NCBI GenBank assembly: GCA_047651235.1
Contig: CP178758.1
Location: 780,001-812,000 of the forward strand
Reading direction: 5' to 3'
Source: Candidatus Electrothrix yaqonensis
GTDB taxonomy: Bacteria; Desulfobacterota; Desulfobulbia; Desulfobulbales; Desulfobulbaceae
DNA: 32,000 nt
Part shown: piece by piece, positions 4,297 to 24,229 of the stretch
Position numbering within the stretch: position 1 is the first letter of the stretch
Layout: every line of letters starts with the position of its first letter
Made by a program: the position numbers and the translations under genes
Notes under the pieces: model-generated
The model's database searches: none
What the model was told of the DNA's origin: nothing
Seen by the model: only the letters and a program-made list of their open reading frames with translations

Positions 4297-4611
<315 letters not shown>

Positions 4612-8107: not shown

Positions 8108-8133
8108 CGCGGTAACGCGCGGGTGTCGGTGTC

Positions 8134-8162
8134 GTAGGGACACGGCGCGCCGTTGCCCCTAC
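8134..8162. repeat. GC-rich palindromic (REP-like) hairpin just after the folD stop; diverged member of the family at 10299 and 24241
   Basis: GTAGGGACACGGCGCGCCGTTGCCCCTAC is nearly self-complementary. It shares the CGTAGGG...CCCCT frame with the copy at 24241. Confidence 0.5.
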
Positions 8163-8225
8163 AGTTCCGAACCGAAAACGAGGATATTTTTTGAGGAACC
8201 TGCGCTGTAAAGGTATATGAAAGGA

Positions 8226-8253
8226 ACAGGCAACCGTGCAATCCGTTGCCTGT
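8226..8253 (+). terminator. Intercistronic hairpin between folD and cooS
   Basis: ACAGGCAAC (8226-8234) pairs perfectly with GTTGCCTGT (8245-8253). T-rich sequence (TTTCTGTTTTTT) begins only about 8 nt later, so terminator function is uncertain. Confidence 0.3.
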
Positions 8254-8296
8254 GCTCAGATTTCTGTTTTTTAGCTGTTTTTGAGGAGACCGCACT

Positions 8297-10288
8297 ATGG
8301 CCAAGCCTAACCGCTGCGAAAGCTGTAACGATATAACCGCCAGCTCAACCCGTGACCTGCTCAACCAGGATCTTGCCAAACAGGTCCGTACAGCCTATGA
8401 CCGTATTGAAGACCGCGGCATGTCAGCCTGTCTGTTCGGCTCCGGCGGGACCTGCTGCCGGAACTGCAATATGGGGCCGTGTCAGATTATTGACGGGGTT
8501 GAGTCCATGGTCGGTATCTGCGGGGCCACGGCAGATACGGTTGCAGCCCGTAATTTTGCCCGTGTCGTGGCAGCCGGTTCCTCGGCTCATACGGATCATG
8601 CCCGCGAAATGGTGCGCGGCTTTATCGCCACCGCCAAAGGCGAGACCCCGCACGAGATCAAAGATGTGGCCAAGCTGCATGAGATGGCGCAGCTTTTCGG
8701 GGTTGAAACAGAAGGCCGGGATAAAAACGAAATCGCCATTGATTTGGGTGAGCGGGCTCTGGCTGAATTCGGCAAGCAGAATGACACACCGCTGACCATG
8801 CTGAAACGGGCGCCGGAAAAACAGCAGAAGATCTGGAAAAAACAGGGTGTTGAGCCGCGCGGGATTGACCGGGAAGTGGTGGAGATGATGCACCGGACCC
8901 ACATGGGCGTGGATCAGGAATATCATAATATTACCCGTCAGGCCTCCCGTTGTGCGCTGGCTGATGGCTGGGGTTCCTCCATGCTCTCCACTGAACTCAC
9001 CGATATTATGTTCGGGACGCCGGTACCTAAACGGGCTATTGTGGATCTTGGTGTGCTGCGGGAAGACATGGTCAATGTGACCGTACATGGTCACGAGCCT
9101 CTTTTGGCTGAGTCCCTCTGTCTGGCAGCCGAAGATGAGGAAGTCCAGACTTTGGCAAAAAAAGCCGGTGCCAAGGGTGTGAATCTGGCCGGTGTCTGCT
9201 GCACCGGGAATGAGATCCTAATGCGTCGGGGTATCCCGGTTGCCGGTTCCTTTATCCAGCAGGAAATGGTACTGGCAACCGGCGCAGTCGAAGCTATGGT
9301 TGTGGATGTTCAGTGCGTGATGCAGTCGCTTGCTCAGGCAGTAAAGGGAAAACATACCGACATCATAACCACCAATTACCGGGCCATGATGCCGGATGGC
9401 ATTCATATCCAGTTTGACGAGCATGATGCCTATGCCTCGGCCAAAAGAATTCTGGCCCATGCCATAGGTAATTTTAAAAAGCGAGGTCCTCATTATATTC
9501 CTCAGGATAAGAAATTCGATGTGGTGGTCGGCTTTTCCCACGAGACCATCAATTATATGCTCGGCGGTCGGTTCCGTCAGTCCTATCGTCCACTGAACGA
9601 CAACATCATCAACGGGCGTATCCGGGGTGTAGGCGCTCTGGTCGGCTGCGAGCATTACAAGCATTCCGATGATGTCCATTTTACCATTGCTACTGAGCTG
9701 ATCAAAAATAATGTACTGGTACTTGCTACCGGTTGTGCAGCCCAGGCTCTTGGTCGACGTGGTTTGATGCGACCGGAGGCAGCAACCGAGTATGCCGGAG
9801 ACGGGCTGCGCGAGGTCTGCGAGACCGTGGGTATGCCGCCGGTCCTGCATGTGGGATCCTGCGTGGATAATTCCCGCCTGCTTATCGCTCTGACCGCAAT
9901 GGTCAAGGAAGGCGGGCTGGGGGATGATATTGCCGAACTGCCAGCAGTCGGTTCCGCGCCCCTGTGGATGAGTGAAAAGGCAGTAGCCATCGGCCAGTAC
10001 TTTGTCACCAGCGGGGCTCATGTTATCTTCCAGGATCTGCCCATCAGCGGGGCCAAGAAATTCTCCGAGTATCTGCTCAAGGAGATCAAAGAGGAATACG
10101 GAGCCTGCTGGGGTGTTGCCAGTGAGCCGTTGGATATTGCCAAAGCCATGATTGACGCCATCGAGGAAAAACGCGAAGCCTTGGGCATCAACAAAAAGAA
10201 AGAGCGCGTACTCATGGATATGGCCATGCGCCGTGAAATCGAGGCCGGAAATGGACTGGCCGGGGCCGGTTGCGGCGGGCATGGTTGA
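8297..10288 (+). CDS. cooS: Ni-dependent anaerobic carbon monoxide dehydrogenase catalytic subunit (CooS/AcsA type)
   Basis: 663 aa. It has the N-terminal Cys cluster CLFGSGGTCCRNCNMGPCQI, plus HGHEPLL, GVCCTGNE and VGSCVDNSR. A GAGGAG RBS is present. Confidence 0.95.
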   Translation: MAKPNRCESCNDITASSTRDLLNQDLAKQVRTAYDRIEDRGMSACLFGSGGTCCRNCNMGPCQIIDGVESMVGICGATADTVAARNFARVVAAGSSAHTDHAREMVRGFIATAKGETPHEIKDVAKLHEMAQLFGVETEGRDKNEIAIDLGERALAEFGKQNDTPLTMLKRAPEKQQKIWKKQGVEPRGIDREVVEMMHRTHMGVDQEYHNITRQASRCALADGWGSSMLSTELTDIMFGTPVPKRAIVDLGVLREDMVNVTVHGHEPLLAESLCLAAEDEEVQTLAKKAGAKGVNLAGVCCTGNEILMRRGIPVAGSFIQQEMVLATGAVEAMVVDVQCVMQSLAQAVKGKHTDIITTNYRAMMPDGIHIQFDEHDAYASAKRILAHAIGNFKKRGPHYIPQDKKFDVVVGFSHETINYMLGGRFRQSYRPLNDNIINGRIRGVGALVGCEHYKHSDDVHFTIATELIKNNVLVLATGCAAQALGRRGLMRPEAATEYAGDGLREVCETVGMPPVLHVGSCVDNSRLLIALTAMVKEGGLGDDIAELPAVGSAPLWMSEKAVAIGQYFVTSGAHVIFQDLPISGAKKFSEYLLKEIKEEYGACWGVASEPLDIAKAMIDAIEEKREALGINKKKERVLMDMAMRREIEAGNGLAGAGCGGHG

Positions 10289-10298
10289 TATGTATGCA

Positions 10299-10320
10299 GG
10301 GGCGGTTCGCGAACCGCCCC
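10299..10320. repeat. Perfect 22-nt palindrome GGGGCGGTTCGCGAACCGCCCC (REP-like) after the cooS stop
   Basis: Self-complementary over all 22 nt. An identical core recurs at 24242-24263 after the hdrA stop. Confidence 0.75.
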
Positions 10321-10392
10321 CACGGCACATCGCAAGAAAAAATGTATAGATAATTTCTGCCCACAGCGGCGGATCACAGGCAAGGAGGATTG

Positions 10393-13032
10393 ATGAAATC
10401 GGGGAGCAATTTGGAGCGGGTGCTCCGGAGCGGCGCATTTGCCGTGACCGGTGAGCTGGGACCGCCAAAGAACAGTGACCCTGATGTGGTCAGAGAAAAG
10501 GCAAGGATACTGAAGGGCAATGTGGATGCAGTCAATATCACCGACTGCCAGACCGCCATTGTCCGCATGTCGTCCATCGGTGCCGGTCTGCTGGCGCAGA
10601 ATGAAGGCGTGGAGCCGGTTATTCAGATGACCTGCCGGGACCGGAACCGGATTGCTATGCAGTCGGACTTGCTGGCCGCATCTGCCCTGGGCCTGAAAAA
10701 TCTGCTCTGTCTGACCGGTGATCACCAGAAATTTGGCAATCATCCCGGTTCCAAGGGCGTGTTTGATATGGATTCCATCCAGCTGCTCGGCATGGTCCGG
10801 GATATGCGGGACGGAAAAAAATTCCAGTGCGGGGAGGAAATTAAAGGCAAAACCACCGATCTTTTTCTCGGCGCAGCCGCCAATCCCTTTGCCTATCCTT
10901 TTGAATTCCGGGCAGTCCGTATGGGCAAGAAGATTGCCAACGGCGCCGACTTCATCCAGACCCAGATCATCTACAATGTGGAGAAGTTCACCAAGTTCAT
11001 GGAAATGTCCCGTGATCTTGGGCTGCATGAAAAGGCGTATATTCTGGCCGGGGTAACCCCGCCCAAATCGTTGGGCATGGCCCGGTACATGAAGAAATTC
11101 GTGCCTGGAATGGATGTGCCGGATGAGGTGATCAAACGGCTGCAGGGTGCCAAGGACAAAAAACAGGAAGGTATTAATATCGCGGTTGATATTATCAATC
11201 AGGTCAAGGAAATCTCCGGTGTAGCCGGTGTCCATGTCATGGCCATTGAGTGGGAGGAGGCGGTTCCTGAAATCTGTGAAAAAGCAGGCCTGCTGCCGCG
11301 TCCGACCTTTGATGAGGCTGCCGAACCTGCCTTGGCTGCGGAGCCGAAGACCGAGGCAATTGAGGCTGTTGAGGTCAGAGGGGCTGTTGACCAAGCTGCT
11401 GCCGATGATATTCTGGAGAAGGCCAAGGCCGAAGCTGAGAAAATTATAGCTGCCGCCCGGACGGAAGCTGAGGCGCTCACTGCTCAGTCCGGCGGAGCGA
11501 CAACAGAAACTGCTGCATGTGAACCGGCAGCAGATGATGCAGGAGAACATGCAATGAATGAAAATGGACGTCGTGCGGCGTTGGAATCAGTCAATAAGGG
11601 ACTGGAAGCCTTGAAGAAGGCCTACGGGCTGAGTGATGATCAATTTAATGCCCTGATGAATTTTGTCGATGCAGCTTCGGTTCTGGGACAGGCGCCGAAA
11701 CCGTACAGCCGGCCTGCAGCTCCTTCTGCACCGACTGCTCCTGCTGTTGAAAAGCCTGCTGCAGATGATGCGGCCAGGGCGGAAGTAGAGGCCAAAGCTC
11801 AGGCAGAGGCCGAAGAAAAGGCAAAAGCTGAAGCTGCTGCAAAGGCCGAGGTAGAAAAGAAAGCGCAGGCAGAAGCTGCCGCCAAGGCGGAAGCCGAGGA
11901 AAAGGCAAAAGCCGAAGCTGCTGCCAAAGCGGAGGCAGAAAAGAAAGCACAGGCAGAAGCTGCCGCCAAGGCGGAAGCCGAGGCCAAAGCTGAAGATAAG
12001 GCTAAGGCTGCTTCGGCTGCTGCAGCGCCTTCTGATCTGGATGCTCCGGTGCTGGCTGCCGATGAAACACCCTTTGCCGAGCGGGCCACCAAGGTGCCTG
12101 CATCCAGCTACAGTATGGGCTACTCCGGCGCCATCCGGGAGGTCACCCTGGGTAACGGCGAGAACACCGTCACTGTAGGCGGGTCCACTTCTCTGCCCTT
12201 CCATCTTTTTGAAGGCGAGATGGGCAACAAACCGCTCATCGCGATGGAGGTCATGGATGTCCGTCCTGACAACTGGCCGGAGACCCTGAGCAGACATTTT
12301 GACGATGTTATGGACAGTCCGGTAGACTGGGCCAAGAAATGCGTTGACGTGTACAAGGCTGATGCCATCAATATCTGGCTGGCCGGAACCGACCCCAACG
12401 GAGCCAACCGTCCGGCAGCAGATGCGGCCAAAGATGCTGCCGCTGTCATCAATGCCGTGGACGTACCGATCATTGTCTGGGGCTGCGGCAACGCGGAAAA
12501 AGATACCGAGACCCTGCGTGAAGTCACCGCGCAGATCGGCGACAAAAAGGTCTGCCTGGCCCCGCTGGAGGACAGCAACTACCGGGCTGTCGGTGCAACG
12601 GCAATGGCCTTCCAGCATCCGATGGTGGCCGCCTCACCCATTGATGTCAACTTGGCCAAGCAGCTGAATATCCTGCTGGAGAATCTCGGTGTGCCCCTGG
12701 ATACCGTGATGATGGATCCCTCTGTAGGTGCCTTGGGCTACGGTATCGAATATACCTACTCGGTTATGGAGCGCATCCGTATTGCCGCCTTGACCCAGAA
12801 GGATGAAAAACTGCAGGTGCCGATCATCTGCAATCTGGGCCGTGAAGTATGGAAGGCCAAGGAGGCCGGGCTGCCCACAGATGACATGATGGGCGACCAG
12901 GAAAACCGGGGGGTCATGATGGAGGCAATCACGGCTTCCTGTATGCTGACGGCCGGTGGTGAGGTGCTGATCATGCGCCATCCCAAGGCGGTCAACATGA
13001 CCAAATCGCTGATCAACGGTCTGATCGGCTGA
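10393..13032 (+). CDS. metF-acsD: Fusion protein: methylene-THF reductase (MetF) domain, then a ~270-aa Ala/Glu/Lys-rich linker, then the corrinoid Fe-S protein small subunit (AcsD/CdhD) domain
   Basis: One uninterrupted ORF; ATG at 10393 follows AAGGAGG. The N-terminal ~300 aa are MetF-like (AVNITDCQTAIVRMSS, QMTCRDRNR, LCLTGDH, FIQTQIIYN). The C-terminal ~300 aa are AcsD-like (YSGAIREVTLGNG...VGGSTSLPFHLFEG, DAINIWLAGTDPNG, PIIVWGCGN, PSVGALGYGIEYTYS). No stop or RBS lies between the domains. Confidence 0.85.
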   Translation: MKSGSNLERVLRSGAFAVTGELGPPKNSDPDVVREKARILKGNVDAVNITDCQTAIVRMSSIGAGLLAQNEGVEPVIQMTCRDRNRIAMQSDLLAASALGLKNLLCLTGDHQKFGNHPGSKGVFDMDSIQLLGMVRDMRDGKKFQCGEEIKGKTTDLFLGAAANPFAYPFEFRAVRMGKKIANGADFIQTQIIYNVEKFTKFMEMSRDLGLHEKAYILAGVTPPKSLGMARYMKKFVPGMDVPDEVIKRLQGAKDKKQEGINIAVDIINQVKEISGVAGVHVMAIEWEEAVPEICEKAGLLPRPTFDEAAEPALAAEPKTEAIEAVEVRGAVDQAAADDILEKAKAEAEKIIAAARTEAEALTAQSGGATTETAACEPAADDAGEHAMNENGRRAALESVNKGLEALKKAYGLSDDQFNALMNFVDAASVLGQAPKPYSRPAAPSAPTAPAVEKPAADDAARAEVEAKAQAEAEEKAKAEAAAKAEVEKKAQAEAAAKAEAEEKAKAEAAAKAEAEKKAQAEAAAKAEAEAKAEDKAKAASAAAAPSDLDAPVLAADETPFAERATKVPASSYSMGYSGAIREVTLGNGENTVTVGGSTSLPFHLFEGEMGNKPLIAMEVMDVRPDNWPETLSRHFDDVMDSPVDWAKKCVDVYKADAINIWLAGTDPNGANRPAADAAKDAAAVINAVDVPIIVWGCGNAEKDTETLREVTAQIGDKKVCLAPLEDSNYRAVGATAMAFQHPMVAASPIDVNLAKQLNILLENLGVPLDTVMMDPSVGALGYGIEYTYSVMERIRIAALTQKDEKLQVPIICNLGREVWKAKEAGLPTDDMMGDQENRGVMMEAITASCMLTAGGEVLIMRHPKAVNMTKSLINGLIG
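11812..11979 (+). repeat. Two tandem 84-nt (28-aa) coding repeats inside the MetF-AcsD linker
   Basis: Units 11812-11895 and 11896-11979 differ at about 7-8 of 84 positions by hand alignment. They encode EEKAKAEAAAKAE(V/A)EKKAQAEAAAKAEA. Degenerate partial units flank them (about 11786-12010). Confidence 0.8.
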
Positions 13033-13117: not shown

Positions 13118-15325
13118 ATGTCAAAGATTATCTGTTCCGCAGCGATCCGCGGTGCGCAGAAGATCGTGGATATGGCTGAAGAATCCTATGAAGAGGCCCT
13201 GAAAAAATACGGCCCTGATCAGGAGGTTGCCTTTCCCAATACCGCCTATTATCTGCCGATCATCTATTCCATGCTCGGTGCCAAGGTGGAAAAGCTCGGT
13301 GATATGAAAGATATTTTTCAGGAGTGCCGCACGCTGCTGCCTGCCATTGTCACCGAGGATATCTGGCTGCCCTATCTGGGCCAGGCGCTGGACGCAGGCA
13401 TGGCCACATATTTTGCCGAGGAGATGTACGAGGCCATTGATTACCTCAATTCACCGGATTATTACACCAAGACAGAGGATCCCACTGCAGATAATATCTG
13501 GCTCGGTGCAGCAGATGACGTTATTTTCCGGAAGCGCGGCGTCGAGTTTGTTGACGGCACAGCACCCGGATTTGCCGCCATTGTCGGTTCCCCGGCAGAC
13601 CCGGCGGCTGCCTCGAAGATTGCCTTGGAGCTGCAGGAGAAAAACCTGTACATCTTTATGCATACGGAGTCGGACGGGAATTTCATGCCCGAACTGCTGG
13701 TGCAGAACGGCGTCCAGGTGGGCTGGAATACCCGGCTGGTCCCCTTCGGCAAACGCTATACCTCGGTGGTCTTTTCCATCGGTTTCGCCTGCCGTGTAGC
13801 CTTGGCCTTTGGCGGTGTCAAACCCGGCGACTCCAAGGGGAACCTCATATACAATAAAGAACGGACTTTTGCCTTTGTTATGCCGTTCGGTCAGGTCAGC
13901 GACGAGTGGTATGCCAATGCTGCCGGAGCCATCAACTGGGGCTTCCCCACCATCTCCGATTATGCCATCCCGGAGATCCTGCCCACCGGCGTCTGCACCT
14001 ACGAGCATGTGGTATCCAATGTGCCGCATGATGAGATTGTGCAGAAGGCCATTGAGGTGCGCGGCCTGAAGGTCACGATCAGCAAGATCGATATTCCCAT
14101 GTCCTTCGGCCCTGCCTTTGAAGGTGAGCGTATCCGTAAGGACGACCTGTTTATGGAATGCGGCGGCGGTCGGACCACTGGAGTTGAGGTCCTGATTTCC
14201 AAGGAGATGGACGAGATCGAGGACGGCAATGTCATTCTTGAAGGCCCGGATATCTCGGACATTGAACAGGGTCAGAACCTGCCCATTGCCATTCTGGTTG
14301 AGGTGGCAGGCCGCGAGATGCAGTCCGACTTTGAGCCGATCCTGGAGCGCCAGTTCCATCACCTGATCAACTATGTGCAGGGCATTATGCACATCGGTCA
14401 ACGGAACATCATGTGGGTCCGTATCGGCAAGGCTGCGGTAGAGAAAGGCTTTTCCTTCAAACATATCGGTACGGTTCTGCACGGCAAGCTGCATCAGGAG
14501 TTCGGCGCGATTCTCGATAAGGTGCAGGTCAAGATTTTCACCGTGCAGGACAAGGTCGAAGAGGTTATGGAGATTGCCAAGCAGGTGTATACCGAACGCG
14601 ACCTGCGCCTCGGTTCCATGACCGATGAGACCGAGGAGGTCTTCTACTCCTGTACCCTGTGCCAGTCCTTTGCCCCCAGCCATGTCTGCGTGATCACGCC
14701 GGAGCGAATCGGTATGTGCGGGGCCTACAACTGGCTGGACGGCAAGGCTTCCTATCAGATCAATCCGACCGGCCCGAATCAGCCTATTGACAAGGGGGAG
14801 TGTACAGATCCAGACAACGGCTACTTCACCGGCATCAACGAGTTTGTTAATCAGGCTTCACGGGGCGCGGTGACCGATGTCAGCTGCTACTCCCTGATGA
14901 ACAATCCCATGACCGCCTGCGGCTGCTTTGAGGCCATTGCCGCAATGCTGCCGCAATGTAACGGTATTATGGTGGTCAACCGCGACTACATGGGTATGAC
15001 CCCGTCCGGGATGAAATTCACCACCTTGGCCGGTATGGCGGGCGGTGGTATGCAGACTCCCGGTTTCATGGGCGTGTCCAAGCATTACATGACCAGTAAA
15101 AAGCTGTTCAAGGCTGAAGGCGGCATCAAGCGGGTCGTCTGGATGCCGAAGATCATGAAGGACGAAATCAGTGAGAAGCTGCAGGCAATCTGCGAGCATG
15201 TGGGTATGCCGGAACTCTACGACATGATCGCCACGGAAGAGCAGGGCACCACTGAGGAAGAAATTCTTGAGTTCCTCAAGGAAAAAGGTCATCCTGCGCT
15301 GGAGATGGAAACGGCTATGGGGTGA
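13118..15325 (+). CDS. acsB: Acetyl-CoA synthase (CO-methylating, A-cluster subunit AcsB/CdhC type)
   Basis: 735 aa. Contains FYSCTLCQSFAPSHVCVITPERIGMCGA and NPMTACGCFEAIAAML (A-cluster Cys motifs). An AAGGGAG RBS is present. Confidence 0.95.
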   Translation: MSKIICSAAIRGAQKIVDMAEESYEEALKKYGPDQEVAFPNTAYYLPIIYSMLGAKVEKLGDMKDIFQECRTLLPAIVTEDIWLPYLGQALDAGMATYFAEEMYEAIDYLNSPDYYTKTEDPTADNIWLGAADDVIFRKRGVEFVDGTAPGFAAIVGSPADPAAASKIALELQEKNLYIFMHTESDGNFMPELLVQNGVQVGWNTRLVPFGKRYTSVVFSIGFACRVALAFGGVKPGDSKGNLIYNKERTFAFVMPFGQVSDEWYANAAGAINWGFPTISDYAIPEILPTGVCTYEHVVSNVPHDEIVQKAIEVRGLKVTISKIDIPMSFGPAFEGERIRKDDLFMECGGGRTTGVEVLISKEMDEIEDGNVILEGPDISDIEQGQNLPIAILVEVAGREMQSDFEPILERQFHHLINYVQGIMHIGQRNIMWVRIGKAAVEKGFSFKHIGTVLHGKLHQEFGAILDKVQVKIFTVQDKVEEVMEIAKQVYTERDLRLGSMTDETEEVFYSCTLCQSFAPSHVCVITPERIGMCGAYNWLDGKASYQINPTGPNQPIDKGECTDPDNGYFTGINEFVNQASRGAVTDVSCYSLMNNPMTACGCFEAIAAMLPQCNGIMVVNRDYMGMTPSGMKFTTLAGMAGGGMQTPGFMGVSKHYMTSKKLFKAEGGIKRVVWMPKIMKDEISEKLQAICEHVGMPELYDMIATEEQGTTEEEILEFLKEKGHPALEMETAMG

Positions 15326-15346
15326 TTCGGCCAAAAAGGTAGTATA

Positions 15347-15393
15347 AAACGGAGATCAGGGATAGAAAATTGTTAAGATCTTGATCTCCGTTT
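15347..15393 (+). terminator. Hairpin after acsB
   Basis: AAACGGAGATCA (15347-15358) pairs perfectly with TGATCTCCGTTT (15382-15393). The loop is long (23 nt) and the T-tract is short. Confidence 0.4.
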
Positions 15394-15442
15394 AAAGCTG
15401 ATATTGAAAATATTACGCTCTTGCTCTGTCTAACAAAATGAA

Positions 15443-16168
15443 ATGATTAATCGACTGAAGCAAGTTTATTCTGAAAATACAATAGTAGGAATTGCCCTTA
15501 CCGCATTAGCAATATTTTTTGGACAGGTAATATTTCCAGAACAGGTTAAAGGTTTAATAGAATATTTAATTCCGCTGTTTATTATAGTTGCGTGTCTGGA
15601 AATTTTGTTTATCAGGGAAAATCTTAAAAAATTTAATTGCGACTCAGAATTTGAATACAATTCATTTAATTCCGGTGAGGAATTTGATAATTATTTAGCA
15701 AATCGATTTAAAACGGCTAATTCTGTAAAAGTTCTACATGTTGATGCGCAAACAATCCCTAAAAGAGAAAATAGAAGATACTACGATATAGCAGATGATT
15801 TCATAAAGTCAGGTAAAAGTTTCAGGAGGATTTTTTCTGATACAAGCAATGCAGATGTGTATCAGTGGATGCAAGAAGATCTTGAGAAGTTCCAGAAAGA
15901 TAGATATTTTGCTCATCTTTTGGACAAGGTAACAATACATAATATCCGAACAATAGGCATTATGTTAATTGATGACGAGGAAGTATGTCTTGGGGGCGGA
16001 TATGTTACTTCCTTTAAGCATCCAACAATATCGATCAAACATCCAGACATTGTTAAGTTCTTTTCCGATTATTTTGATTATTTGCGGGATAACTCTATTA
16101 ATCTGAAAACAGATGAAAAGATAAATATGGATATTTTGGAAGAACGTATTAATAATTTACCGACTTAA
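15443..16168 (+). CDS. AT-rich orphan: N-terminal two-TM membrane anchor plus a soluble domain of unknown function
   Basis: 241 aa. Hydrophobic segments are IVGIALTALAIFFGQVIF and LIEYLIPLFIIVACLEILFI. The soluble part (NSVKVLHVD...IGIMLIDDEEVCLGGGYV...) has no catalytic motif I can recognise. No Shine-Dalgarno is visible. Confidence 0.65.
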   Translation: MINRLKQVYSENTIVGIALTALAIFFGQVIFPEQVKGLIEYLIPLFIIVACLEILFIRENLKKFNCDSEFEYNSFNSGEEFDNYLANRFKTANSVKVLHVDAQTIPKRENRRYYDIADDFIKSGKSFRRIFSDTSNADVYQWMQEDLEKFQKDRYFAHLLDKVTIHNIRTIGIMLIDDEEVCLGGGYVTSFKHPTISIKHPDIVKFFSDYFDYLRDNSINLKTDEKINMDILEERINNLPT

Positions 16169-16200
16169 TTATTTTAGAAAAATGAAAGAGGGCCTGCAGG

Positions 16201-16815
16201 ATGCCGTACAGCAGCTTCAAATCAGTCGGTGAAGTAAGTCAGAAATTTGATATCGAAGTACGAGCCGAATCGTTTATAGAAACAAAAGAAATTCAGGTGT
16301 TGGAATATATTTCTTCCCGTCTTGAAGAGAAGTTACGAGAGGACGCCTACTTTATTAATGAATTTGCTATCTGCGAGCAAATTATCAGCCATATACTGGA
16401 TGCAGTTGCGGAACAGCATAAGCAGCTCCTTGTCTGGTCGCACATTTCTTTCAATGTAGACAGAGAACAGGATTTGGTCGGTGAGCCTGATTACCTGATT
16501 GCCCCAAAAACAAAGCACGGTGTCATGTCTGTTCCGCCTCTTTGTATCATGGAGGCAAAGCAGGAAAAATGGAACGAAGGTTGGGCACAGACCTTGGCGG
16601 AAATGTACGCAGCATCGCTTAAAGGGGCAGAAACATGTTACGGTGTTGTCACCACGGGTAAGGCATGGGAATTCGGCAAGTTTGAGTACAGCATCTTTAC
16701 CAGAGACCCGACGCAGATATCGGCTACAGAAAATTTACAGAAAGTGTTTGATGTATTGAATTGGTTATTCGGCAAAGCCTACCCTGGCAAGCAGAATGCA
16801 CAGGATAGGGCGTAA
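16201..16815 (+). CDS. PD-(D/E)xK nuclease-superfamily protein (HsdR-N-terminal-like family, function unknown)
   Basis: 204 aa. The motif is GEPDYLIA (D97) ... CIMEAKQEK (E118, K120). The preceding NEFAICEQIISHIL helix is typical of this standalone family. The start lies 32 nt after the previous gene. Confidence 0.7.
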   Translation: MPYSSFKSVGEVSQKFDIEVRAESFIETKEIQVLEYISSRLEEKLREDAYFINEFAICEQIISHILDAVAEQHKQLLVWSHISFNVDREQDLVGEPDYLIAPKTKHGVMSVPPLCIMEAKQEKWNEGWAQTLAEMYAASLKGAETCYGVVTTGKAWEFGKFEYSIFTRDPTQISATENLQKVFDVLNWLFGKAYPGKQNAQDRA

Positions 16816-16901
16816 TTATAACAAATTAACAGCTGCCGGGCGGACAGGAGAGCGTATCCCCCGGTGTTCTGATTCTGGTTTTTGAACAGGAGGATAAATA
16901 A

Positions 16902-18251
16902 ATGGCGTTAACCGGTATACAGATTCTCAAGATGCTGCCCAAGACGAACTGCGGCAAGTGCGGCATCCCCACATGTCTTGCCTTTGCCATGAAAGTGGCT
17001 GCCGGGCAGGTTGAGATTGAGACATGCCCTGATGTAAGTGAAGAGGCAAAGGCCACTATCGGCGAGGCGTCAGCACCGCCGATCCGGACCGTCAAAATCG
17101 GTGCCGGTGATGCTCTGTTTACCGTCGGTGGCGAGACTTGCCAGTTTCGGCATGAAAAACGCTTTGAAAATCAGACCGGGCTTGCCGTCCTGATTGCTAC
17201 GGACGAGGATGCGGCCTCGGTGGACGGCAAGCTCAAGCGGGCCAATGATTTGGAGTACGAGCGTGTCGGCGTGATGATGCGCAATAATCTGGTTGCGATC
17301 AAGGATAACGGCGGTGCCTCGCTGGCTGACATGGCGAAAAAGGTCATGGAGGCGGCTCCCAAGCAGGCCATTATCCTGATGAGCGATAATGTTGATAACC
17401 TCAAGGCAGGTGCCGAAGCATGCGGCGACAATCAGCCGCTGCTCTACGGTGCAACCGGCGAGAATGCGGAGGCCTTTGCCGACCTTGCCAAGGAGACCGG
17501 CTGCGTCATCGGTGTGAAGGGCAAGAATCTGGATGACTTGGTGGAGACGGCAGACAAGCTGATCGCCGCCGGAGTCAAGGATATGATCATTGACTCCGGA
17601 GCCCGGACGCTTCGCGGAGCTTTTGAAGATAATGTCGTGGCGCGACGCTCTGCAGTTAAAGAAAAATTCAAGGCGCTCGGCTTCCCGACCATCACCTTCC
17701 CCTGTGAGATGTGTGATGACCTGATGATGGAGGCCATGATCGGCTCTGTACTGATGGCCAAGTATGCGGGCATCACCGTGTTCTCCGACATTCAGGGGGA
17801 TGTGCTGTTTCCGCTCCTGCTGGAGCAGCTCAACATCTTCACTGATCCGCAGCGGCCTATGGTCGTGGCTGAGGATATCTACCCGATCACCGGGCCGGAT
17901 GAGAATTCACCGGTGCTGATCACCTGTAACTTCTCGCTCACCTACTTTATTGTTTCCGGTGAAATTGAAGGCTCCAAGGTACCGAGCTGGCTGCTGATCA
18001 AGGATACTGAAGGTCTGTCCGTGTTGACTGCTTGGGCCGCTGGTAAATTCGGTGCTGATCTGATCGCCATGTTTGTGAACAAGTCCGGTATTGCGGACAA
18101 GGTCAAGCATCGGGAGCTGATCATTCCGGGTTATCTGGCCACCATCAAGGGTGAGCTGGAAGAAGAGCTGCCTGATTGGACCATCACCATCGGGCCGCGT
18201 GAGGCCGGGCATCTGCCTGCCTTCCTCAAAGAGTGGAAACCGGCAGCATAG
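16902..18251 (+). CDS. acsC: Corrinoid iron-sulfur protein large subunit (AcsC/CdhE type)
   Basis: 449 aa. It has the N-terminal 4Fe-4S motif LPKTNCGKCGIPTCLAFAMKVA...CP and the C-terminal corrinoid-binding region LITCNFSLTYF...WLLIKDTEGLSVLTAWAAGKF. An AGGAGG RBS is present. Confidence 0.92.
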   Translation: MALTGIQILKMLPKTNCGKCGIPTCLAFAMKVAAGQVEIETCPDVSEEAKATIGEASAPPIRTVKIGAGDALFTVGGETCQFRHEKRFENQTGLAVLIATDEDAASVDGKLKRANDLEYERVGVMMRNNLVAIKDNGGASLADMAKKVMEAAPKQAIILMSDNVDNLKAGAEACGDNQPLLYGATGENAEAFADLAKETGCVIGVKGKNLDDLVETADKLIAAGVKDMIIDSGARTLRGAFEDNVVARRSAVKEKFKALGFPTITFPCEMCDDLMMEAMIGSVLMAKYAGITVFSDIQGDVLFPLLLEQLNIFTDPQRPMVVAEDIYPITGPDENSPVLITCNFSLTYFIVSGEIEGSKVPSWLLIKDTEGLSVLTAWAAGKFGADLIAMFVNKSGIADKVKHRELIIPGYLATIKGELEEELPDWTITIGPREAGHLPAFLKEWKPAA

Positions 18252-18371
18252 CAAGGGCTGGCGGTGCAGTTTTGCTTTGTACAATACAGCCCTGTCGTCC
18301 ATCGGATGATGGGGCTGTTTGGTGTGGGGATATCTATAGGAAATAAGGAGGTAAAGTTGAATTATTGAAAA

Positions 18372-18499
18372 ATGAGCCTGCAATTTACAACCGGATAAAA
18401 GTAAAGTCGATAGCAATCTCAAAAAAACATAAAGTCGGTTTTGAAGAGGCTTCCAGCGTTTTCAGAGAGCCTCTGGCTCCTGATTTTGTAACGAAATAA
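18372..18499 (+). pseudogene. BrnT/DUF497-family toxin remnant (N-terminal ~40 codons, frameshifted)
   Basis: Not in the ORF track. NLQPDKSKVDSNLKK runs into a stop at an A7 run, then continues in another frame as KKHKVGFEEASSVFREPLAPDFVTK*. This resembles the WDxxKxxxNxxKHGVSFEEAxxVFxDPLA start of BrnT toxins. Confidence 0.45.
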
Positions 18500-18514
18500 T
18501 GAGGCTTGATTTTT

Positions 18515-18659
18515 GGTAGTGCCCCTCTTGAGTGTTGTTAAAATGAAAATTACGTAATCATAAGGAGTTGTCCCGCCGAAGACATAAGCCATAAAGTGAG
18601 TCGTTTTAGAGAGCTGCTGGCGTTTTTAGACTTCAACAACACTCAACAAGGTGACTACC
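18515..18659. repeat. Imperfect ~25-bp inverted repeats flanking a 95-bp core (MITE-like or structured-RNA candidate)
   Basis: Left arm GGTAGTGCCCCTCTTGAGTGTTGTT (18515-18539). Right arm AACAACACTCAACAAGGTGACTACC (18635-18659). 21 of 25 positions are complementary, including a 12-nt perfect inner block. The core contains the palindrome ATTACGTAAT. Confidence 0.5.
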
Positions 18660-18898
18660 TGATTTTGAATCATTTGTTTATATGAATTTATGGGGCTTGA
18701 AATGCATTGTCGTTGTCGAAAATATTATTATCTCTCAATCAATGGTTCGGTAATTTTTCCTGCGTTGGATACCTTTCTGGTGCTAGCCGATTGAACATAT
18801 TGAATTTGCTAAATTAAAATTTATTTACCGAACTATTGTTAATACAGAACTATCTATATTCACTATCGTTATAATTCATCTTTTCAAGGTAGCGCCCT

Positions 18899-19909
18899 GT
18901 GATTGTTGAGAAAATTTTTAATATAATAGTTGGTATTTGTGGATTATTAGCTTTCGCTATCACAATAGGAGGTATATACTATACCTTCGTACATATCCCA
19001 TCGCCTACAGGAATCAATAAAGATTTAATAAAAATTATATATGTACTCGGAACAGCTATAGTTACATTAGTAGCTTCTTTTCTGTTTTTGTCATTCATTT
19101 CATTCTATTACATAATAAAACTGCAAGAAAAATTAGGTAAGCTTCCTATAGAAAATAAACAACAAGAAGGCATCATTATTTCTAAGCAAAGAATGTTAAG
19201 AAATATAACAGCATCTCTGCACAATATAACACATCATCATAGAAATATAATTATCCTTTTGGAGGGAGCGATAAACGATTTAAAAGAAGATGCGCATAGC
19301 CTAGACGATAAAAAGTGTGAAAAAATTTGCAATAAATTTGAAAGATATATCTGTTTAGTTTTAATGAACATCAACTCAACTATGAGTGTTATGACTCAAG
19401 ATGAGTGTTCAACTTGTATAAAAATAATAAAAGATAATAAAGTAAAAACTTACTTTAGAGACTCAAATTCTTATAGAGAGAGAAGATACTCTGATTATAC
19501 ACAAAAAGGAGAATATAATATATATGATATTTCTGAAAACACAGCATTTCATTCAATTGCAGATCCGAATACAAAAGCTTCATTTTTTGTGTCTGATAAT
19601 TTAGAAGAATATTCAAATTACGATAATAAAAATCCAAATTGGAAAACTTTATATAATGCAACTATAGTGGTTCCAATCCAATTTAAAATAAAAGAAATTT
19701 TTAAAAATGAAGCGTATGTAGTAGGCTTTATATGCTGTGATAATTTCAGAGGAAGATTTGAATCAAAAGAGGTTAAAGATTTCCTTTCTTCAATAGGGGA
19801 TTCATTGTATAGTTTGTTCTTTTTATATGATTGTTATTATAAATTATGTACAGAAAAAGGATTTAATAATGGAAGGCTACGAAAATATGGTAAATGGGAC
19901 ATATGTTGA
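18899..19909 (+). CDS. Very AT-rich orphan: two-TM N-terminus plus a cytoplasmic GAF-like domain
   Basis: 336 aa with a GTG start. TM segments are IIVGICGLLAFAITIGGIYYTFV and IIYVLGTAIVTLVASFLFLSFISFYYII. The C-terminal YNATIVVPIQFK...AYVVGFICCDNFRGRFE...FLSSIGDSLYSLF resembles the core strands and helix of GAF domains. Confidence 0.55.
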   Translation: MIVEKIFNIIVGICGLLAFAITIGGIYYTFVHIPSPTGINKDLIKIIYVLGTAIVTLVASFLFLSFISFYYIIKLQEKLGKLPIENKQQEGIIISKQRMLRNITASLHNITHHHRNIIILLEGAINDLKEDAHSLDDKKCEKICNKFERYICLVLMNINSTMSVMTQDECSTCIKIIKDNKVKTYFRDSNSYRERRYSDYTQKGEYNIYDISENTAFHSIADPNTKASFFVSDNLEEYSNYDNKNPNWKTLYNATIVVPIQFKIKEIFKNEAYVVGFICCDNFRGRFESKEVKDFLSSIGDSLYSLFFLYDCYYKLCTEKGFNNGRLRKYGKWDIC

Positions 19910-20082
19910 CAAGACAAAGGCTAAACAAGATTCTTTACAATTTTTTTTAGCTCCCACTCCTTATTATAAATCCTCAATATCCAAAGAGATAAAAAAGGAC
20001 AATATTCAAACGATGTGGAAAAAAATTAAAAATGCAATTAAATTAATATGTTAACAGGGCAGGATGCATTTGCGCACCAATC

Positions 20083-20511
20083 ATGGCATTAATTAGTTAT
20101 AGTCTTTATCATTCAGCGATAGCTGTCAATATAAGCGGTGAACTGGTCAAGCAGAAGGAGTTCAGGGCGCATTCCGAACTGACAACGGTGATTGACGGGG
20201 TCGATTATCAACCGGACATTTCGGTTTATAAAAGGAAGAAACTGCATTATATAAGCGAGCAGGATGAAACGAAAACGCAGGAACTTCCGCTGCTCGCTAT
20301 AGAAATCGTCTCACCCAGTCAGACGATGAATGAGTTGATCAAGAAAGCTGACTTTTATGTCCAGTCCGGTATTCATTCTGTCTGGATAGTGCATCCGCAG
20401 ACACATAGTATTACAGTAAAAACACAAAGCGAAACAAGCATTTATCACGAGGGGCTGTTGGAGGATATAACCGGTATTAAAGCTGATCTTGCTGTTATCT
20501 TTGAGGATTAA
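20083..20511 (+). CDS. Uma2-family (DUF820) PD-(D/E)xK endonuclease, short form
   Basis: 142 aa. Contains YQPDISVY ... LLAIEIVSPSQ ... KKADFYVQSGIHSVWIVHPQ, the Uma2 signature. Confidence 0.8.
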   Translation: MALISYSLYHSAIAVNISGELVKQKEFRAHSELTTVIDGVDYQPDISVYKRKKLHYISEQDETKTQELPLLAIEIVSPSQTMNELIKKADFYVQSGIHSVWIVHPQTHSITVKTQSETSIYHEGLLEDITGIKADLAVIFED

Positions 20512-20520
20512 GTTTTTTGT

Positions 20521-21054
20521 ATGAAAAAATTCACGTTGACTTCCTTGAAAAGGGAGCTGAGAGAGAAGACAAAAGAAGAATTAATCAAAGAGATCAGTTT
20601 GCTCTGCAAGAAGTTTCCACAAGTGAAGGGATATTATCAGGCTCAGGCAGGTGATGTTCAGGAGATTGTTGCAAAATGTAAGAAGATAATTGAGAAGGAA
20701 TTTATTGACGGGAAAACAAGAGGTCTGCCAAAGGCAAGGTTGTCGGTAGCGAAGAAAGCAATAAGAGATTTCAACAGATTAGTTGATAATGTAGAACTGA
20801 CCGCCGGGATGATGTTCACGTATACCGAAAGTGTCTCGCAGTTTAACTCTCGGTTTGCTCCTGATACTGAAGAGTTCTATACCGAACCTGAAGATATGTT
20901 CGAAGAGGCTCTGGAACTCTTAGCTCAACATAACCTTCTGGCCAAGTTTAAAAACAGAGCCTGTAAAATTGTTGCAGGTTCGACTGAGGGATGGGGTCAC
21001 CGTGATTCTTTGCAGGAGAGATACGAGGCTGTCTATGGCGAACAAGTTTATTAA
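20521..21054 (+). CDS. Conserved hypothetical protein (resembles the family I recall as DUF6155; unverified)
   Basis: 177 aa. Contains LKRELREKTKEELIKEISLLCKKFPQVKGYY ... LPKARLSVAKKAIRDF ... NLLAKFKNR. It starts 9 nt after the Uma2 gene. Confidence 0.65.
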   Translation: MKKFTLTSLKRELREKTKEELIKEISLLCKKFPQVKGYYQAQAGDVQEIVAKCKKIIEKEFIDGKTRGLPKARLSVAKKAIRDFNRLVDNVELTAGMMFTYTESVSQFNSRFAPDTEEFYTEPEDMFEEALELLAQHNLLAKFKNRACKIVAGSTEGWGHRDSLQERYEAVYGEQVY

Positions 21055-21178
21055 CATGAATCCGTGCTGGTTCCTGATAAATTACTATATCCCGTGCCTA
21101 CACGGGACAACCTGTATTTCTGCGCCAGAGACTGATAAAAAATATACTTTAACCATTAAATAACTACTGGAGACTGCA

Positions 21179-24100
21179 ATGGGAAAAGGAATGGAACACA
21201 GGGCCGGATCAGTCATGGTCGTGGGCGGCGGTATCGCGGGAATTCAGACCGCCCTTGATCTGACAGAACTGGGCTATTATGTCTACCTGCTGGAAAAAGC
21301 ACCGGTTGTCGGCGGGGTTATGGCTCAGCTGGACAAGACCTTTCCGACCAATGACTGCTCTCTTTGAATACTCGCGCCCAAGCTGGTAGAGGCCGGTCGG
21401 TCTCCAAACATAGAGATGCTCACCAATGCCGATTTATTGGCATTGAACGGAAAGCCCGGTGATTTTACGGTTACGGTCCGTAAACGCCCACGCTATATTG
21501 ATGCGGACAAGTGTACAGCCTGCGGGCTCTGCACTCAGTATTGTCCCAAACATCTTTCTGATGCCTACAACGAAGGATTGGCCCTGACCCGGCCTATCCA
21601 TATTGATTACGCCCAGGCAGTGCCTGCGACCTACTATATTGATCCTTCGGCCTGTCTGCATGTCCAGCATGAAACCTGCCAGATCTGCGTGCCGGTCTGC
21701 CAGAGTCATGCCATTGACTTCACCCAGCAGGCGGAAGAGGTCGAGGTCAAAGTCGGGGCGATGGTGCTGTCTCCCGGTTTCGGTCGGATTGATGACGCCA
21801 CCTTGGAAAAATATTCCTATGGCAAACACCCGGATGTGGTCACGGCAGTTGAGTTCGAGCGCATGACTACAGCCTCCGGTCCATTCATGGGCGAGGTAAA
21901 ATGCTTCTCCGACGGTCGGCATCCCAAATCCATCGCCTTTATTCAATGCGTCGGGTCCAGAGATCTGGGCTGTGACAACGGCTACTGCTCCTCGGTCTGC
22001 TGTATGTACGCCATCAAGGAAGCAATGGTGGCCAAGGAGCATGACCCGGAAGTGGATATCACCATCTACTACATGGACATCCGTACCCAGGGCAAGGAGT
22101 TTGATAAGGCCCGGCAACGGGCGGAGAACATGGGGGTGAAGTTTGTCCGGGCCAGGGTTGCCGGGGTAACGCCTTGGGAGAAGCACCTGCAGCTGACCTA
22201 TTCCACTCTAGACGGTCAGCATGCGTTCAAGGCCTTTGACATGGTTGTACTTTCCGTCGGCCTGGAAGCGCCCAAGGATGCCAAAGGTATTGCCGATACC
22301 ACCGGTATTACTCTGAACAAATACGATTTTGCCCAGTCCGAGACCTTTACCCCGCTGAACACCAGCGTCGAGGGCGTGGTGGTGGCCGGGGCCTTCCAGG
22401 GACCCAAGGATATTCCTGAATCCGTTACCCAGGCATCAGCGGCAGCCGGGCTGGTCGCCGGGATGCTGGAGAAGCAGCGTGGTCAGGGGATCATCCACAA
22501 GTCCTATCCGGATGAAAAGCCGATGGACGAGGAGGTCCGCATCGGGGTCTTTGTTTGCCATTGCGGCATCAACATTGCCTCGGTAGTAGATGTCCACAAG
22601 GTGGAGGACTCGGTCGAGGGCATGGAATGGGTGGTCTATCATACTGATTCTCTCTACTCCTGCTCGGCAGATGCAGTGCAGACCCTCAAGAATCGGATCA
22701 TTGAGCATAAGCTGAACCGGGTGGTGATTGCGGCCTGTTCACCGCGGACCCATGAGCCGCTTTTCCAGGAAACTCTGCGGGATGCGGGCCTGAACCGCTG
22801 CCTGATCGAGATGGTCAATATCCGCGATCAATGTTCCTGGGTTCATGCCGGAGAGCCGGTCGCAGCCACAATCAAGTCCGAGGATCTGGTGCGCATGGCA
22901 GTGGCCAAGGCCCGAGGAATGCAGCCTCTGCCGGAGCAGACCGTGCCGGTCACGCCCAAGGCCCTGATCATCGGGGCAGGCATTGCCGGAATGACGGTTG
23001 CTCTGACCTTGGCCAAACAGGGCTTTGACTCTGTTCTGGTGGAAAAGGGCGAGAAACTCGGCGGCAGCCTCGGGCTGCTCAACCATACCCTGGATGCCGA
23101 TGCAACCGCAGGCCATCTGCAGCAACTGGTGGCCGAGGTCGAAGAAAATGAGCATATTGATGTGCTGACCAATGCCGAGCTGAAGGACTTCTCCGGTTTT
23201 ATCGGCAACTTTTCCTCAGTGCTGGCAGAAAAGGACGGCCAGGAGCATACGGTAGACCACGGCGTCATCGTGCTGGCCACCGGCGGTCATGAACACCGGC
23301 CTGATGGCTACCTGCTGGAAGAGAACGACAAGGTGGTCACCCAGACCGAGCTGGAGCAGCAGCTGGCCGGGACCGGCAAGGCGCCGGAATCGATTGTCAT
23401 GATCCAGTGCGCCGGTTCGCGAGGCGATGACCTGAACTACTGTTCCAAGGTCTGCTGCAACCATGCGGTCAAGAATGCACTCAAGATCAAGGAGCTGAAT
23501 CCGGCCAGTCAGGTAGTTGTCCTGTACCGGGATATGCGGACCTACAGCTATGCCGAGGATGCCTATCGCGAGGCCCGGCTCAAGGGCGTGATCTTTATCC
23601 CCTACGAGCTGGACCGGAAACCGGAGATTTCTGTCAAAGGAAAGGGCAAAAAGCTGACCGTCAACTTCTTTGACAGCCTGCTGCAGGAAGATGTGCAGAT
23701 GACCCCTGAAATGGTAGCCTTGTCTGTGGGGATTGTCCCGGACAGCACCGAAGACCTGAGCAAGCTGCTCAAGGCACCGCTCACTGATGACCGTTTCTTT
23801 TTGGAAGCCCATGTCAAGCTGCGGCCCGTGGAACTGCCGGTCTCCGGGGTCTATGTCTGCGGTCTGGCCCATGCCCCTAAGCCGGTGGATGAGACCATTG
23901 CCCAGGCCCAGGCTGCTGCTGCCAAAGCGGCTATCCCGCTGGTCAAAGGCAAGGTGACCATTGACCCGATTGTCTCGGTGGTCCAGCAGAACAAGTGCAT
24001 CGGCTGCGGTATCTGCGCCAGCCTCTGTCCCTTTGGAGCCATTGAGATGATCAAAGTGGAGAAGAAGCGCAAGGCCCAAACCATTGCTGCTTCCTGCAAA

Positions 24101-24229
24101 GCCTGCGGTATCTGTTCCAGCCATTGCCCGACCTTTGCCATCTCTATGGGCGGGTTCACCAATGAACAGATCATGGAGCAGATTGCTGCCTTCGGCCAGG
24201 TGACGGCAAAGGAGCCGGTTGAGGCGTAA
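21179..24229 (+). CDS. hdrA: Heterodisulfide reductase subunit A-like flavoprotein, tandem (two-module) form, selenocysteine-containing (TGA at 21365-21367 read as Sec)
   Basis: ORFs 21179..21367 and 21416..24229 share one frame. Read through the TGA, the sequence is [24 protein letters not shown], matching the conserved HdrA FPTNDCSxCILxPK motif with Sec in place of Cys. There are two dinucleotide-binding motifs ([13 protein letters not shown] and [13 protein letters not shown]) and ferredoxin-type CxxCxxCxxxCP motifs. Confidence 0.9.
21389..21404 (+). promoter_or_regulatory. Candidate bacterial SECIS apical hairpin for the hdrA UGA
   Basis: GAGGCC-GGUC-GGUCUC is a 6-bp stem (one G-U pair) with a GGUC loop at 21395-21398, 30-33 nt after the UGA. 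The loop resembles the GGUC apical loop of the E. coli fdhF SECIS. The lower stem is not obvious. Confidence 0.4.

Follow-up and report, generated by a model that had tools for sequence, protein, structure and literature searches.

Do a membrane-protein gene and a nuclease gene that lie side by side inside a core carbon-fixation operon make up one system, or have two unrelated genes come to rest in the same spacer? The question is raised by the Wood-Ljungdahl (acs) operon of the cable bacterium Candidatus Electrothrix yaqonensis (YB6), in which two low-GC open reading frames (ORFs), here called ORF1 and ORF2, separate acsB from acsC. A preliminary description of the locus, made from the sequence alone, had read the pair as a horizontally acquired module and a candidate novel defence or addiction system, with a lineage-specific accessory to the pathway as the less likely option. 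Having analysed the surrounding window, a stretch of 32,000 nucleotides (nt) at positions 780,001 to 812,000 of contig CP178758.1 (assembly GCA_047651235.1), we consider it fairly probable that this ~1.5 kb of inserted DNA (island 1) is a stack of two single-gene insertions made at different times, and not a system. The features on which the argument depends are, in window coordinates:

13118..15325, + strand: acsB, acetyl-CoA synthase (ACS/CODH beta subunit), the native left boundary gene
15326-16901: island 1 (ORF1 and ORF2), between acsB and acsC
15347..15393, + strand: native stem-loop directly 3' of the acsB stop, with 12 perfect pairs (extendable to 14) and a 19-23-nt loop
15394..15442, + strand: ORF1 leader, AT-rich and without a Shine-Dalgarno element, judged from sequence
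15443..16168, + strand: ORF1 (ACL93V_03645), 241 amino acids (aa), 32% GC, two N-terminal transmembrane helices and a predicted phospholipase D (PLD)-fold domain
16169..16200, + strand: 32-nt spacer with the putative ORF2 ribosome-binding site (GAGG at 16188-16191)
16201..16815, + strand: ORF2 (ACL93V_03650), 204 aa, 45% GC, predicted restriction-endonuclease-fold nuclease
16816..16901, + strand: native acsC leader (AACAAAttAACAGCtGCCGGGC... and AGGAGG at 16888-16893), which starts again directly at the ORF2 stop
16902..18251, + strand: acsC, corrinoid Fe-S protein large subunit, the native right boundary gene

The landmarks of the preliminary description are sound. Its coordinates for the two co-oriented ORFs, 32 nt apart, are correct; the acsB stop at 15325 is followed by the reported hairpin with a 12-bp stem, a perfect 12-nt inverted repeat at 15347-15358 / 15382-15393; and acsC at 16902 has its own AGGAGG, 8 nt 5' of the ATG. 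The drop in GC content that it had estimated by hand, from ~58% to ~35%, is about right, at 0.32 for ORF1, 0.45 for ORF2, 0.38 for the whole gap and 0.55-0.58 for acsB and acsC. Both flanking genes have strong Pfam matches, acsB to ACS_CODH_B_C (5.7e-120) and CdhC (5.9e-67), and acsC to CdhD (1.2e-77) and FeS (2.4e-14).

Eighty loci around acsC homologs were fetched, one genome per species, and the operon genes were mapped on them. Identity to acsB is 77-94% in 79 of these loci and 46% in the remaining one (L072), and identity to acsC is 68-94% across all 80. In nearly every non-cable Desulfobulbaceae locus acsB and acsC lie ~40-300 nt apart (mostly 50-160), and four Electrothrix genomes (E. 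gigas, L002; E. marina, L003; two other MAGs, L005 and L006) have an empty spacer of 149-161 nt, which bears out the earlier statement that the two genes are normally contiguous. Both ORF1 and ORF2 are found in the gap only of the window and of the Logan contig L081 (source SRR34468995), adjacent, co-oriented and 32 nt apart in each. In E. aarhusensis (L004) ORF2, at 82% amino-acid identity, is the sole gene in a gap of 864 nt, and in the metagenome-assembled genome (MAG) L001 the gap holds DUF4238, DUF2283, a small gene and an ORF2 disrupted by one frameshift and one stop codon. In local alignments the inserted DNA always lies between the native hairpin and the conserved acsC leader (CAAGATATAAC...AACAGCCGCCGGGC), which picks up at the ORF2 stop; the leader at 16816..16901 aligns with the spacer of the four empty sites, and the ORF1 leader at 15394..15442 has no significant similarity to the empty-site spacer. 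Low GC and empty orthologous sites thus support the horizontal acquisition of both genes, so that the preliminary description was right about foreign DNA, if not about a single module.

Electronema (L007-L016) has neither ORF1 nor ORF2 nor the other Electrothrix cargo states in this gap. It carries instead ParE-like, YoeB/RelE-like, UPF0175 with DUF3368, ParA-like ATPase and DUF169 genes. DUF4238 is 87% identical between the Electrothrix-like MAG L001 and the Electronema MAG L009, which at the sequence level suggests exchange at this locus between the genera. The spacer that follows acsC is likewise mosaic, with MntA/HepT-type pairs, HEPN, Mrr_cat, Uma2 and a 29%-identical ORF2 paralog, and E. 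aarhusensis has one ORF2-family member on either side of acsC. Both spacers flanking acsC in cable bacteria gather small genes of toxin-antitoxin, HEPN and nuclease type, and island 1 is one case of this general accretion of conflict-type genes within the acs operon. In collecting such genes (ParE-like, YoeB/RelE, UPF0175 with DUF3368, MntA/HepT, HEPN, Mrr_cat, Uma2, DUF4238) the two spacers resemble variable or defence islands, but, unlike typical genomic islands, the acs sites lie inside a core carbon-fixation operon rather than at a tRNA gene, and have no integrase or transposase. This recurrent colonisation is to us the most interesting point about the locus: the acs operon of cable bacteria keeps foreign nuclease and toxin genes in two of its spacers over long periods, which bears on the transcription of the operon and on cable-bacterial genome evolution.

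Hallmarks of a mobile element are missing. No island protein has a transposase domain, integrase and transposase genes are absent from both islands of the operon, and a search for flanking inverted or direct repeats or target duplications returned only short chance matches, so that island 1 has none of the transposase, terminal inverted repeats or target-site duplication of a transposon, insertion sequence (IS) or miniature inverted-repeat transposable element. An AACAAA duplication at the island ends was considered and discarded as too short and AT-rich to count.

The evidence for separate arrival comes from the divergence of the two genes. Synonymous divergence (dS) of ORF2 runs alongside that of acsC, at 0.96 and 0.93 respectively between the window and L004 and at 0.64 and 0.63 between L081 and L004, a locus without ORF1. 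Between the window and L081, dS is 1.45 for ORF2, 1.02 for acsC and 0.34 for ORF1; the ratio of nonsynonymous to synonymous divergence (dN/dS) is 0.04-0.09 for ORF2 and 0.21 for ORF1 in this last comparison. Because its dS parallels that of acsC and its dN/dS is so low, ORF2 is a long-standing resident, passed on vertically under strong purifying selection. The window and L081 agree at ~90% of nucleotides over 15450-~16350, a tract made up of ORF1 and the first ~150 nt of ORF2; in acsC and the remainder of ORF2 the figure is ~80%. Transfer of a segment into an already occupied gap is the simplest reading of this pattern, and on that ground ORF1 is a younger, separately mobile addition.

The left edge of L081 (1-360) has a peculiarity of its own, in that only the last ~17 codons of acsB precede the hairpin. 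Upstream of this remnant come a stop codon in frame with it and the 3' terminus of a small gene, the same gene that in L001 lies at 5102-5293, directly upstream of ORF2. The arrangement suggests that the acsB fragment is a duplicate brought in together with ORF1, though it could also be an assembly artefact of the 2.9-kb Logan contig.

Taken as a sequence of events, ORF2 first entered the spacer by itself, in an ancestor shared by YB6, E. aarhusensis and two related lineages; it was inherited vertically thereafter under strong purifying selection and decayed in one lineage. Much later, in the YB6 lineage, the AT-rich ORF1 was added between the hairpin and ORF2, and a segment comprising the 3' end of acsB, the hairpin, ORF1 and the 5' part of ORF2 was then copied into L081 from a YB6-like donor, apparently with ORF2 as the homologous anchor and presumably through homology-facilitated illegitimate recombination. 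Both genes would now be transcribed by read-through, in an operon that tolerates them.

Several points weigh against this account. Compositional constraint at 32% GC could account for part of the low dS of ORF1. L001 is a MAG and L081 a short Logan contig, in which frameshifts and joins could be assembly errors, although the ORF2 of L001 has two independent lesions. ORF1 has no Shine-Dalgarno element, the comparison of ORF1-family contexts draws on five loci, most of them on short metagenomic contigs, and a defence role for ORF2 is a guess from its fold and the behaviour of its family. Finally, two lineages keep the pair at a spacing of 32 nt, and the transferred tract covers ORF1 together with the start of ORF2, so that a recently formed functional coupling of the two genes is conceivable.

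Such a pairing is hard to reconcile with the distribution of the two families. In a two-gene defence or abortive-infection system ORF1 would be the membrane sensor or effector and ORF2 the nuclease, an idea consistent with their adjacency and shared high-identity tract and with the presence of conflict-type genes (a nucleotidyltransferase and HNH, HEPN and GmrSD) in three of the five ORF1-family contexts. The ORF1 homolog of Desulfobacter curvatus precedes a nucleotidyltransferase gene, those of two metagenomic lineages lie among tryptophan-dioxygenase, M20-peptidase and DAHP-synthase genes, and that of another metagenomic lineage lies among unknown genes; a PD-(D/E)xK partner is present in none of the contexts. 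Yet within 4-5 kb of the ORF2-family gene in 89 loci there is no ORF1-family gene, and none of the five ORF1-family loci has an ORF2 relative nearby (L082, L084, L086 and L088 are without ORF2). The preliminary description had itself named a lack of co-occurrence elsewhere as an outcome on which its proposal of one novel defence or addiction system would fall. In E. aarhusensis, moreover, ORF2 persists at this site without ORF1, the two genes are unlike in GC and in dS, and ORF1 has neither the PLD catalytic residues nor a PADLOC match. A paired defence system is therefore not supported, and we regard it as quite unlikely. Nor do the two genes qualify as a type II toxin-antitoxin pair, since neither protein matches a toxin-antitoxin family in Pfam, NCBIfam or PADLOC; true pairs of that kind sit in the same gap in Electronema.

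The defence-island context of ORF2 relatives, which the earlier reading led one to look for, is weak. The 140 immediate neighbours of ORF2-family genes match 152 Pfam families, none of them more than three times, and the commonest PADLOC neighbour is another ORF2 paralog (8 of 140). GmrSD, type ISP restriction-modification, AbiE or toxin-antitoxin genes occur near some loci; in these raw counts most of the neighbours are unrelated small ORFs or housekeeping genes. The comparison removes a false lead: a membrane-protein gene and a nuclease gene can end up side by side through chance stacking, and one genome is insufficient to call a defence system.

That the two genes might serve the pathway into which they have been inserted, for instance as a membrane tether or a maturation factor peculiar to this lineage, would suit their co-oriented position inside the operon and the long retention of ORF2 there. 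But most cable bacteria lack both, as do the acs operons of nearly all other Desulfobulbaceae, homologs of each live in contexts unrelated to acs, and other cable bacteria fill the same gap with toxin-antitoxin genes. A Wood-Ljungdahl accessory role, the second option of the preliminary description, is accordingly scarcely credible.

With two independent insertions as the preferred reading, each gene can be considered by itself. The nuclease core reported for ORF2 (PD97...E118-A-K120) is conserved in 32 family members: across 30-32 family sequences E59, D97, A119, K120 and Q130 are invariant, and E118 is kept in at least 90%. The AlphaFold2 (AF2) model (pLDDT 88.4, pTM 0.87) matches putative restriction endonucleases (9y1l, 6okh) and entries for the type IIG enzymes BpuSI and DrdV in Foldseek. 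The model thus has the fold of the PD-(D/E)xK superfamily with the catalytic residues in register, and by fold and motif ORF2 is a bona fide member, with putative nuclease activity. It has more than 325 homologs, in Electrothrix, Parabeggiatoa, Beggiatoa, Achromatium, Symploca, Magnetomorum and others. Relatives are also carried by plasmids of filamentous cyanobacteria; none was found in phage collections. Amino-acid identity to the Parabeggiatoa and Symploca proteins is 73-79%, and such values across Desulfobulbaceae, Beggiatoaceae and cyanobacteria suggest recent exchange of the family. Tandem arrays of three to four co-oriented, divergent ORF2-family paralogs are seen in sediment metagenomes (L103, 4001-6797; L116, 1265-4612; L125, 1014-5696).

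The family is already catalogued, and ORF2 is a further member of it. ORF2 matches the PADLOC profile PDLC01472, named 'PD_DExK, CAS associated' (E 1.4e-45, 152.8 bits, profile positions 3-142 of 146), and the name would make ORF2 an accessory nuclease of a type III CRISPR-Cas system. The PD-DExK cluster behind it (Shah et al. 2018, cluster 45, representative Marme_0670) was indeed listed among type III accessory candidates, but with 9 occurrences, a low score of 28.54 and the label 'possible nuclease' (PMC6546367). ORF2 shares that profile almost end to end, together with its E...PD...ExK...Q set of residues, and differs in being solitary: ORF2 and the 89 other loci lie next to neither cas genes nor CRISPR arrays, the 140 neighbours include no recurrent cas family, and the 32-kb window contains no CRISPR-like tandem array and, in the ORFs scanned, no cas domain. 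We therefore hold a role in type III CRISPR immunity to be highly improbable, and the annotation should be read with care, the 'CRISPR-associated' PD_DExK family being in fact a free-living gene. ORF2 is most likely a Mg2+-dependent DNA endonuclease that works by itself and that the host keeps for conflict with foreign DNA, and would resemble a solitary restriction enzyme without a partner methyltransferase rather than a CRISPR accessory.

A solitary nuclease might also serve only itself. ORF2 might be a free-standing, homing-endonuclease-like selfish gene of no benefit to the host, spread by the cutting of empty sites, with polyploid filamentous cells as possibly favourable hosts. The acsB-acsC spacer, which lies between conserved genes, occurs empty, with an intact gene and with a broken one (the decayed copy in L001), as such an element would leave it; the high identity among Electrothrix, Parabeggiatoa and Symploca proteins, the several copies per genome, the paralog arrays, the cyanobacterial plasmid copies and the lack of a transposase or terminal repeats are also in keeping with it. 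Divergence that tracks acsC, however, with purifying selection sustained over a dS of ~1, indicates long vertical residence and a selected function, the family occurs in very many contexts without a common target, and the junctions of empty and occupied sites display no conserved recognition sequence. We judge this selfish origin unlikely, and retain successive insertion of two unrelated genes as the explanation of the island.

ORF1 is of a different kind. Its two transmembrane helices, recognised in the preliminary description, are borne out by the AF2 model (pLDDT 82.9), in which hydrophobic helices occupy residues 2-30 and 32-63; the accompanying statement that the soluble part has no recognisable motif gives way to a PLD-superfamily fold without the catalytic HKD motif. 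Foldseek matches in the PDB comprise F13, PLDs, NucT, Nuc, Zucchini, PLD3 and TrmB/TrmBL2 (E 2e-7 to 1e-3), with query-normalised TM scores of 0.41-0.45 over ~160-180 columns. The motif HxK(x)4D(x)6GSxN reads T-x-G(x)4D(x)6GGxY in ORF1, with T170 and G172 at the positions of the catalytic His and Lys. In 127 remote relatives these two columns hold mostly L/I/M and S/N/G, the family consensus in the region is P-L-x-S/N...IID..EV, and only D177 and Gly residues of the motif are retained. Since His and Lys are missing family-wide, the catalytic mechanism of HKD PLD nucleases cannot apply, and the domain is predicted to be incapable of PLD chemistry.

Among known proteins a close parallel is the effector domain of the TrmB family (Regulator_TrmB), also a PLD-like fold without HKD (Foldseek E 1e-6 to TrmB/TrmBL2). 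The Regulator_TrmB model scores 23.4 bits against one ORF1 relative, P0154 (cut-off 22.2), and 17.8 bits against another, P0151; ORF1 itself has no Pfam match. Where TrmB has its N-terminal winged-helix DNA-binding domain, ORF1 has the two hydrophobic transmembrane helices instead. Zucchini/MitoPLD and Nuc/NucT share with ORF1 a single PLD-fold domain of ~170 aa (Foldseek E 2e-6 to 8e-4), and Zucchini in addition an N-terminal membrane anchor, but all of these differ from ORF1 in having the HKD His and Lys. On its model, then, ORF1 is best described as a membrane-anchored, non-catalytic PLD-fold domain of TrmB type. Positively charged residues on either side of the helices suggest a cytoplasmic orientation, and the most likely role of the domain is ligand binding or regulation, as a module tethered to the membrane from the inside.

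The ORF1 family is small and uncharacterised, with 18 close homologs and 127 representative clusters (at 50% identity) in 1.8 billion proteins. ORF1 has no match above threshold in Pfam, NCBIfam, PADLOC or PHROGs and no relative in phage or plasmid collections, and PDB sequence searches with the ORF1 and ORF2 profiles found nothing. A sub-threshold PRTase-CE (PF24390) hit to residues 50-141 (E 0.005, 17 bits against a cut-off of 27) was set aside as unsupported by the fold search. One distant relative, P0186, has an N-terminal adenylate/guanylate cyclase domain (residues 11-160) fused to a PLD-like domain without HKD (residues 219-377). Other relatives contain two or three tandem copies of the domain (e.g. 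P0152 and P0160, 657 aa).

How the operon accommodates its cargo can be gauged from the transcription and translation signals. The 120-nt leader folds with -26.7 kcal/mol (z = -2.65 against shuffles), and the stem-loop at 15347..15393 has no proper U-run after it. The hairpin occurs once in the window and is shared, as this specific hairpin, only with L081. When the 90 nt following acsB were folded systematically, most cable bacteria and near relatives proved to have a strong stem-loop, at the same position in empty and occupied sites and with other sequences. The stem-loop belongs to the operon itself rather than to the insert, and it marks the insertion point, all inserts lying 3' of it. A terminator scan reported no + strand terminator in 15326-16901, and an Rfam search found no RNA family in the window. 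Promoter-like sites in the island are not enriched (22, against 16.6 +/- 4.4 in shuffles), a count that is uninformative. Since ORF1 and ORF2 run in the direction of the operon, with no canonical terminator anywhere from acsB to acsC, they are probably expressed by read-through; the operon would tolerate them because acsC retains its own AGGAGG. The absence of a Shine-Dalgarno element before ORF1 had been reported earlier, and we likewise see no purine-rich element upstream.

Around island 1 the window has the following gene order, with a second low-GC island behind acsC:

7220-8107: folD
8297-10288: CODH (acsA)
10390-13032: MetF-AcsD fusion
18252..21415, + strand: island 2, 3' of acsC
18899-19909: orphan membrane protein of island 2, 336 aa, 27% GC
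20083-20511: Uma2 nuclease of island 2
20521-21054: DUF6155 of island 2
21416-24229: HdrA-like oxidoreductase, 3' of island 2

In island 2 the membrane gene at 18899-19909 stands directly upstream of the older Uma2 gene, mirroring the order of ORF1 and ORF2 in island 1. Uma2 is found alone at the island-2 site in L005 (82% identity). The membrane protein has 18 homologs, whose contexts include a ThsB_TIR gene with an rve integrase (L179) and a P2-like terminase/Ogr region (L180), and none lies beside Uma2 in the contexts examined; the gene looks like mobile-element cargo. A relationship between ORF1 and this membrane protein was considered and rejected (BLASTP E 0.35, hhalign probability 0.1%). 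Uma2 (DUF820, PF05685), for which multiple transfers and, in some lineages, a mobile context are documented (PMC3424549), is like ORF2 a small single-domain PD-(D/E)xK protein and holds the equivalent place in its island. ORF2 nevertheless belongs to a separate sequence family with its own N-terminal ~50 residues, has no Uma2 Pfam match and shows no BLAST similarity to the Uma2 of island 2.

Solitary nucleases of the ORF2 and Uma2 kind could be conceived of more generally as self-propagating intergenic homing elements of polyploid filamentous bacteria, with cable bacteria, Beggiatoaceae, Achromatium, multicellular magnetotactic bacteria and filamentous cyanobacteria as candidate hosts. We give this idea little credence; if it were true, cutting and repair would make the flanking DNA a recombination hot spot, which would explain the newer AT-rich gene directly upstream of the older nuclease in both islands, the entry of ORF1 into L081 with ORF2 as homology anchor, and the filling of core-operon spacers with unrelated cargo.

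The non-coding left part of island 2 contains an imperfect 35-nt inverted repeat (18515-18549 / 18625-18659, 77% complementary, 75 nt apart), just preceded by a terminator-like hairpin at 18467-18479. At the place of island 2, non-cable relatives (L010, L011, L017, L024, ~7450-11700) have a large formate-dehydrogenase-like gene in the form of two adjacent ORFs of 843 and 560 aa, the first with Fer2/Pyr_redox/4Fe-4S domains and the start of a molybdopterin domain, the second with the rest of that domain. The two may be one selenocysteine gene split at a UGA codon. In Electrothrix the gene has been lost and low-GC small ORFs lie in its place.

Elsewhere in the operon, MTHFR (MetF) and a CdhD-type AcsD domain are fused in a single ORF of 880 aa (10390-13032), through a long Ala/Glu/Lys-rich linker encoded by 42/84-nt tandem repeats at 11801-11983 (KAEAEEKAKAEAAA-like units). 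IS elements are abundant 5' of the operon, where three DDE transposase genes or fragments (DDE_Tnp_4, DDE_5, DDE_Tnp_1) are found, the upstream ORFs concerned being 657-1301 (- strand), 2400-2966 (- strand), 4297-4770 (+ strand) and 4813-5304 (+ strand). A carbamoyl-phosphate synthase small-chain ORF of only 157 aa, truncated in appearance, ends just before one of these transposases.

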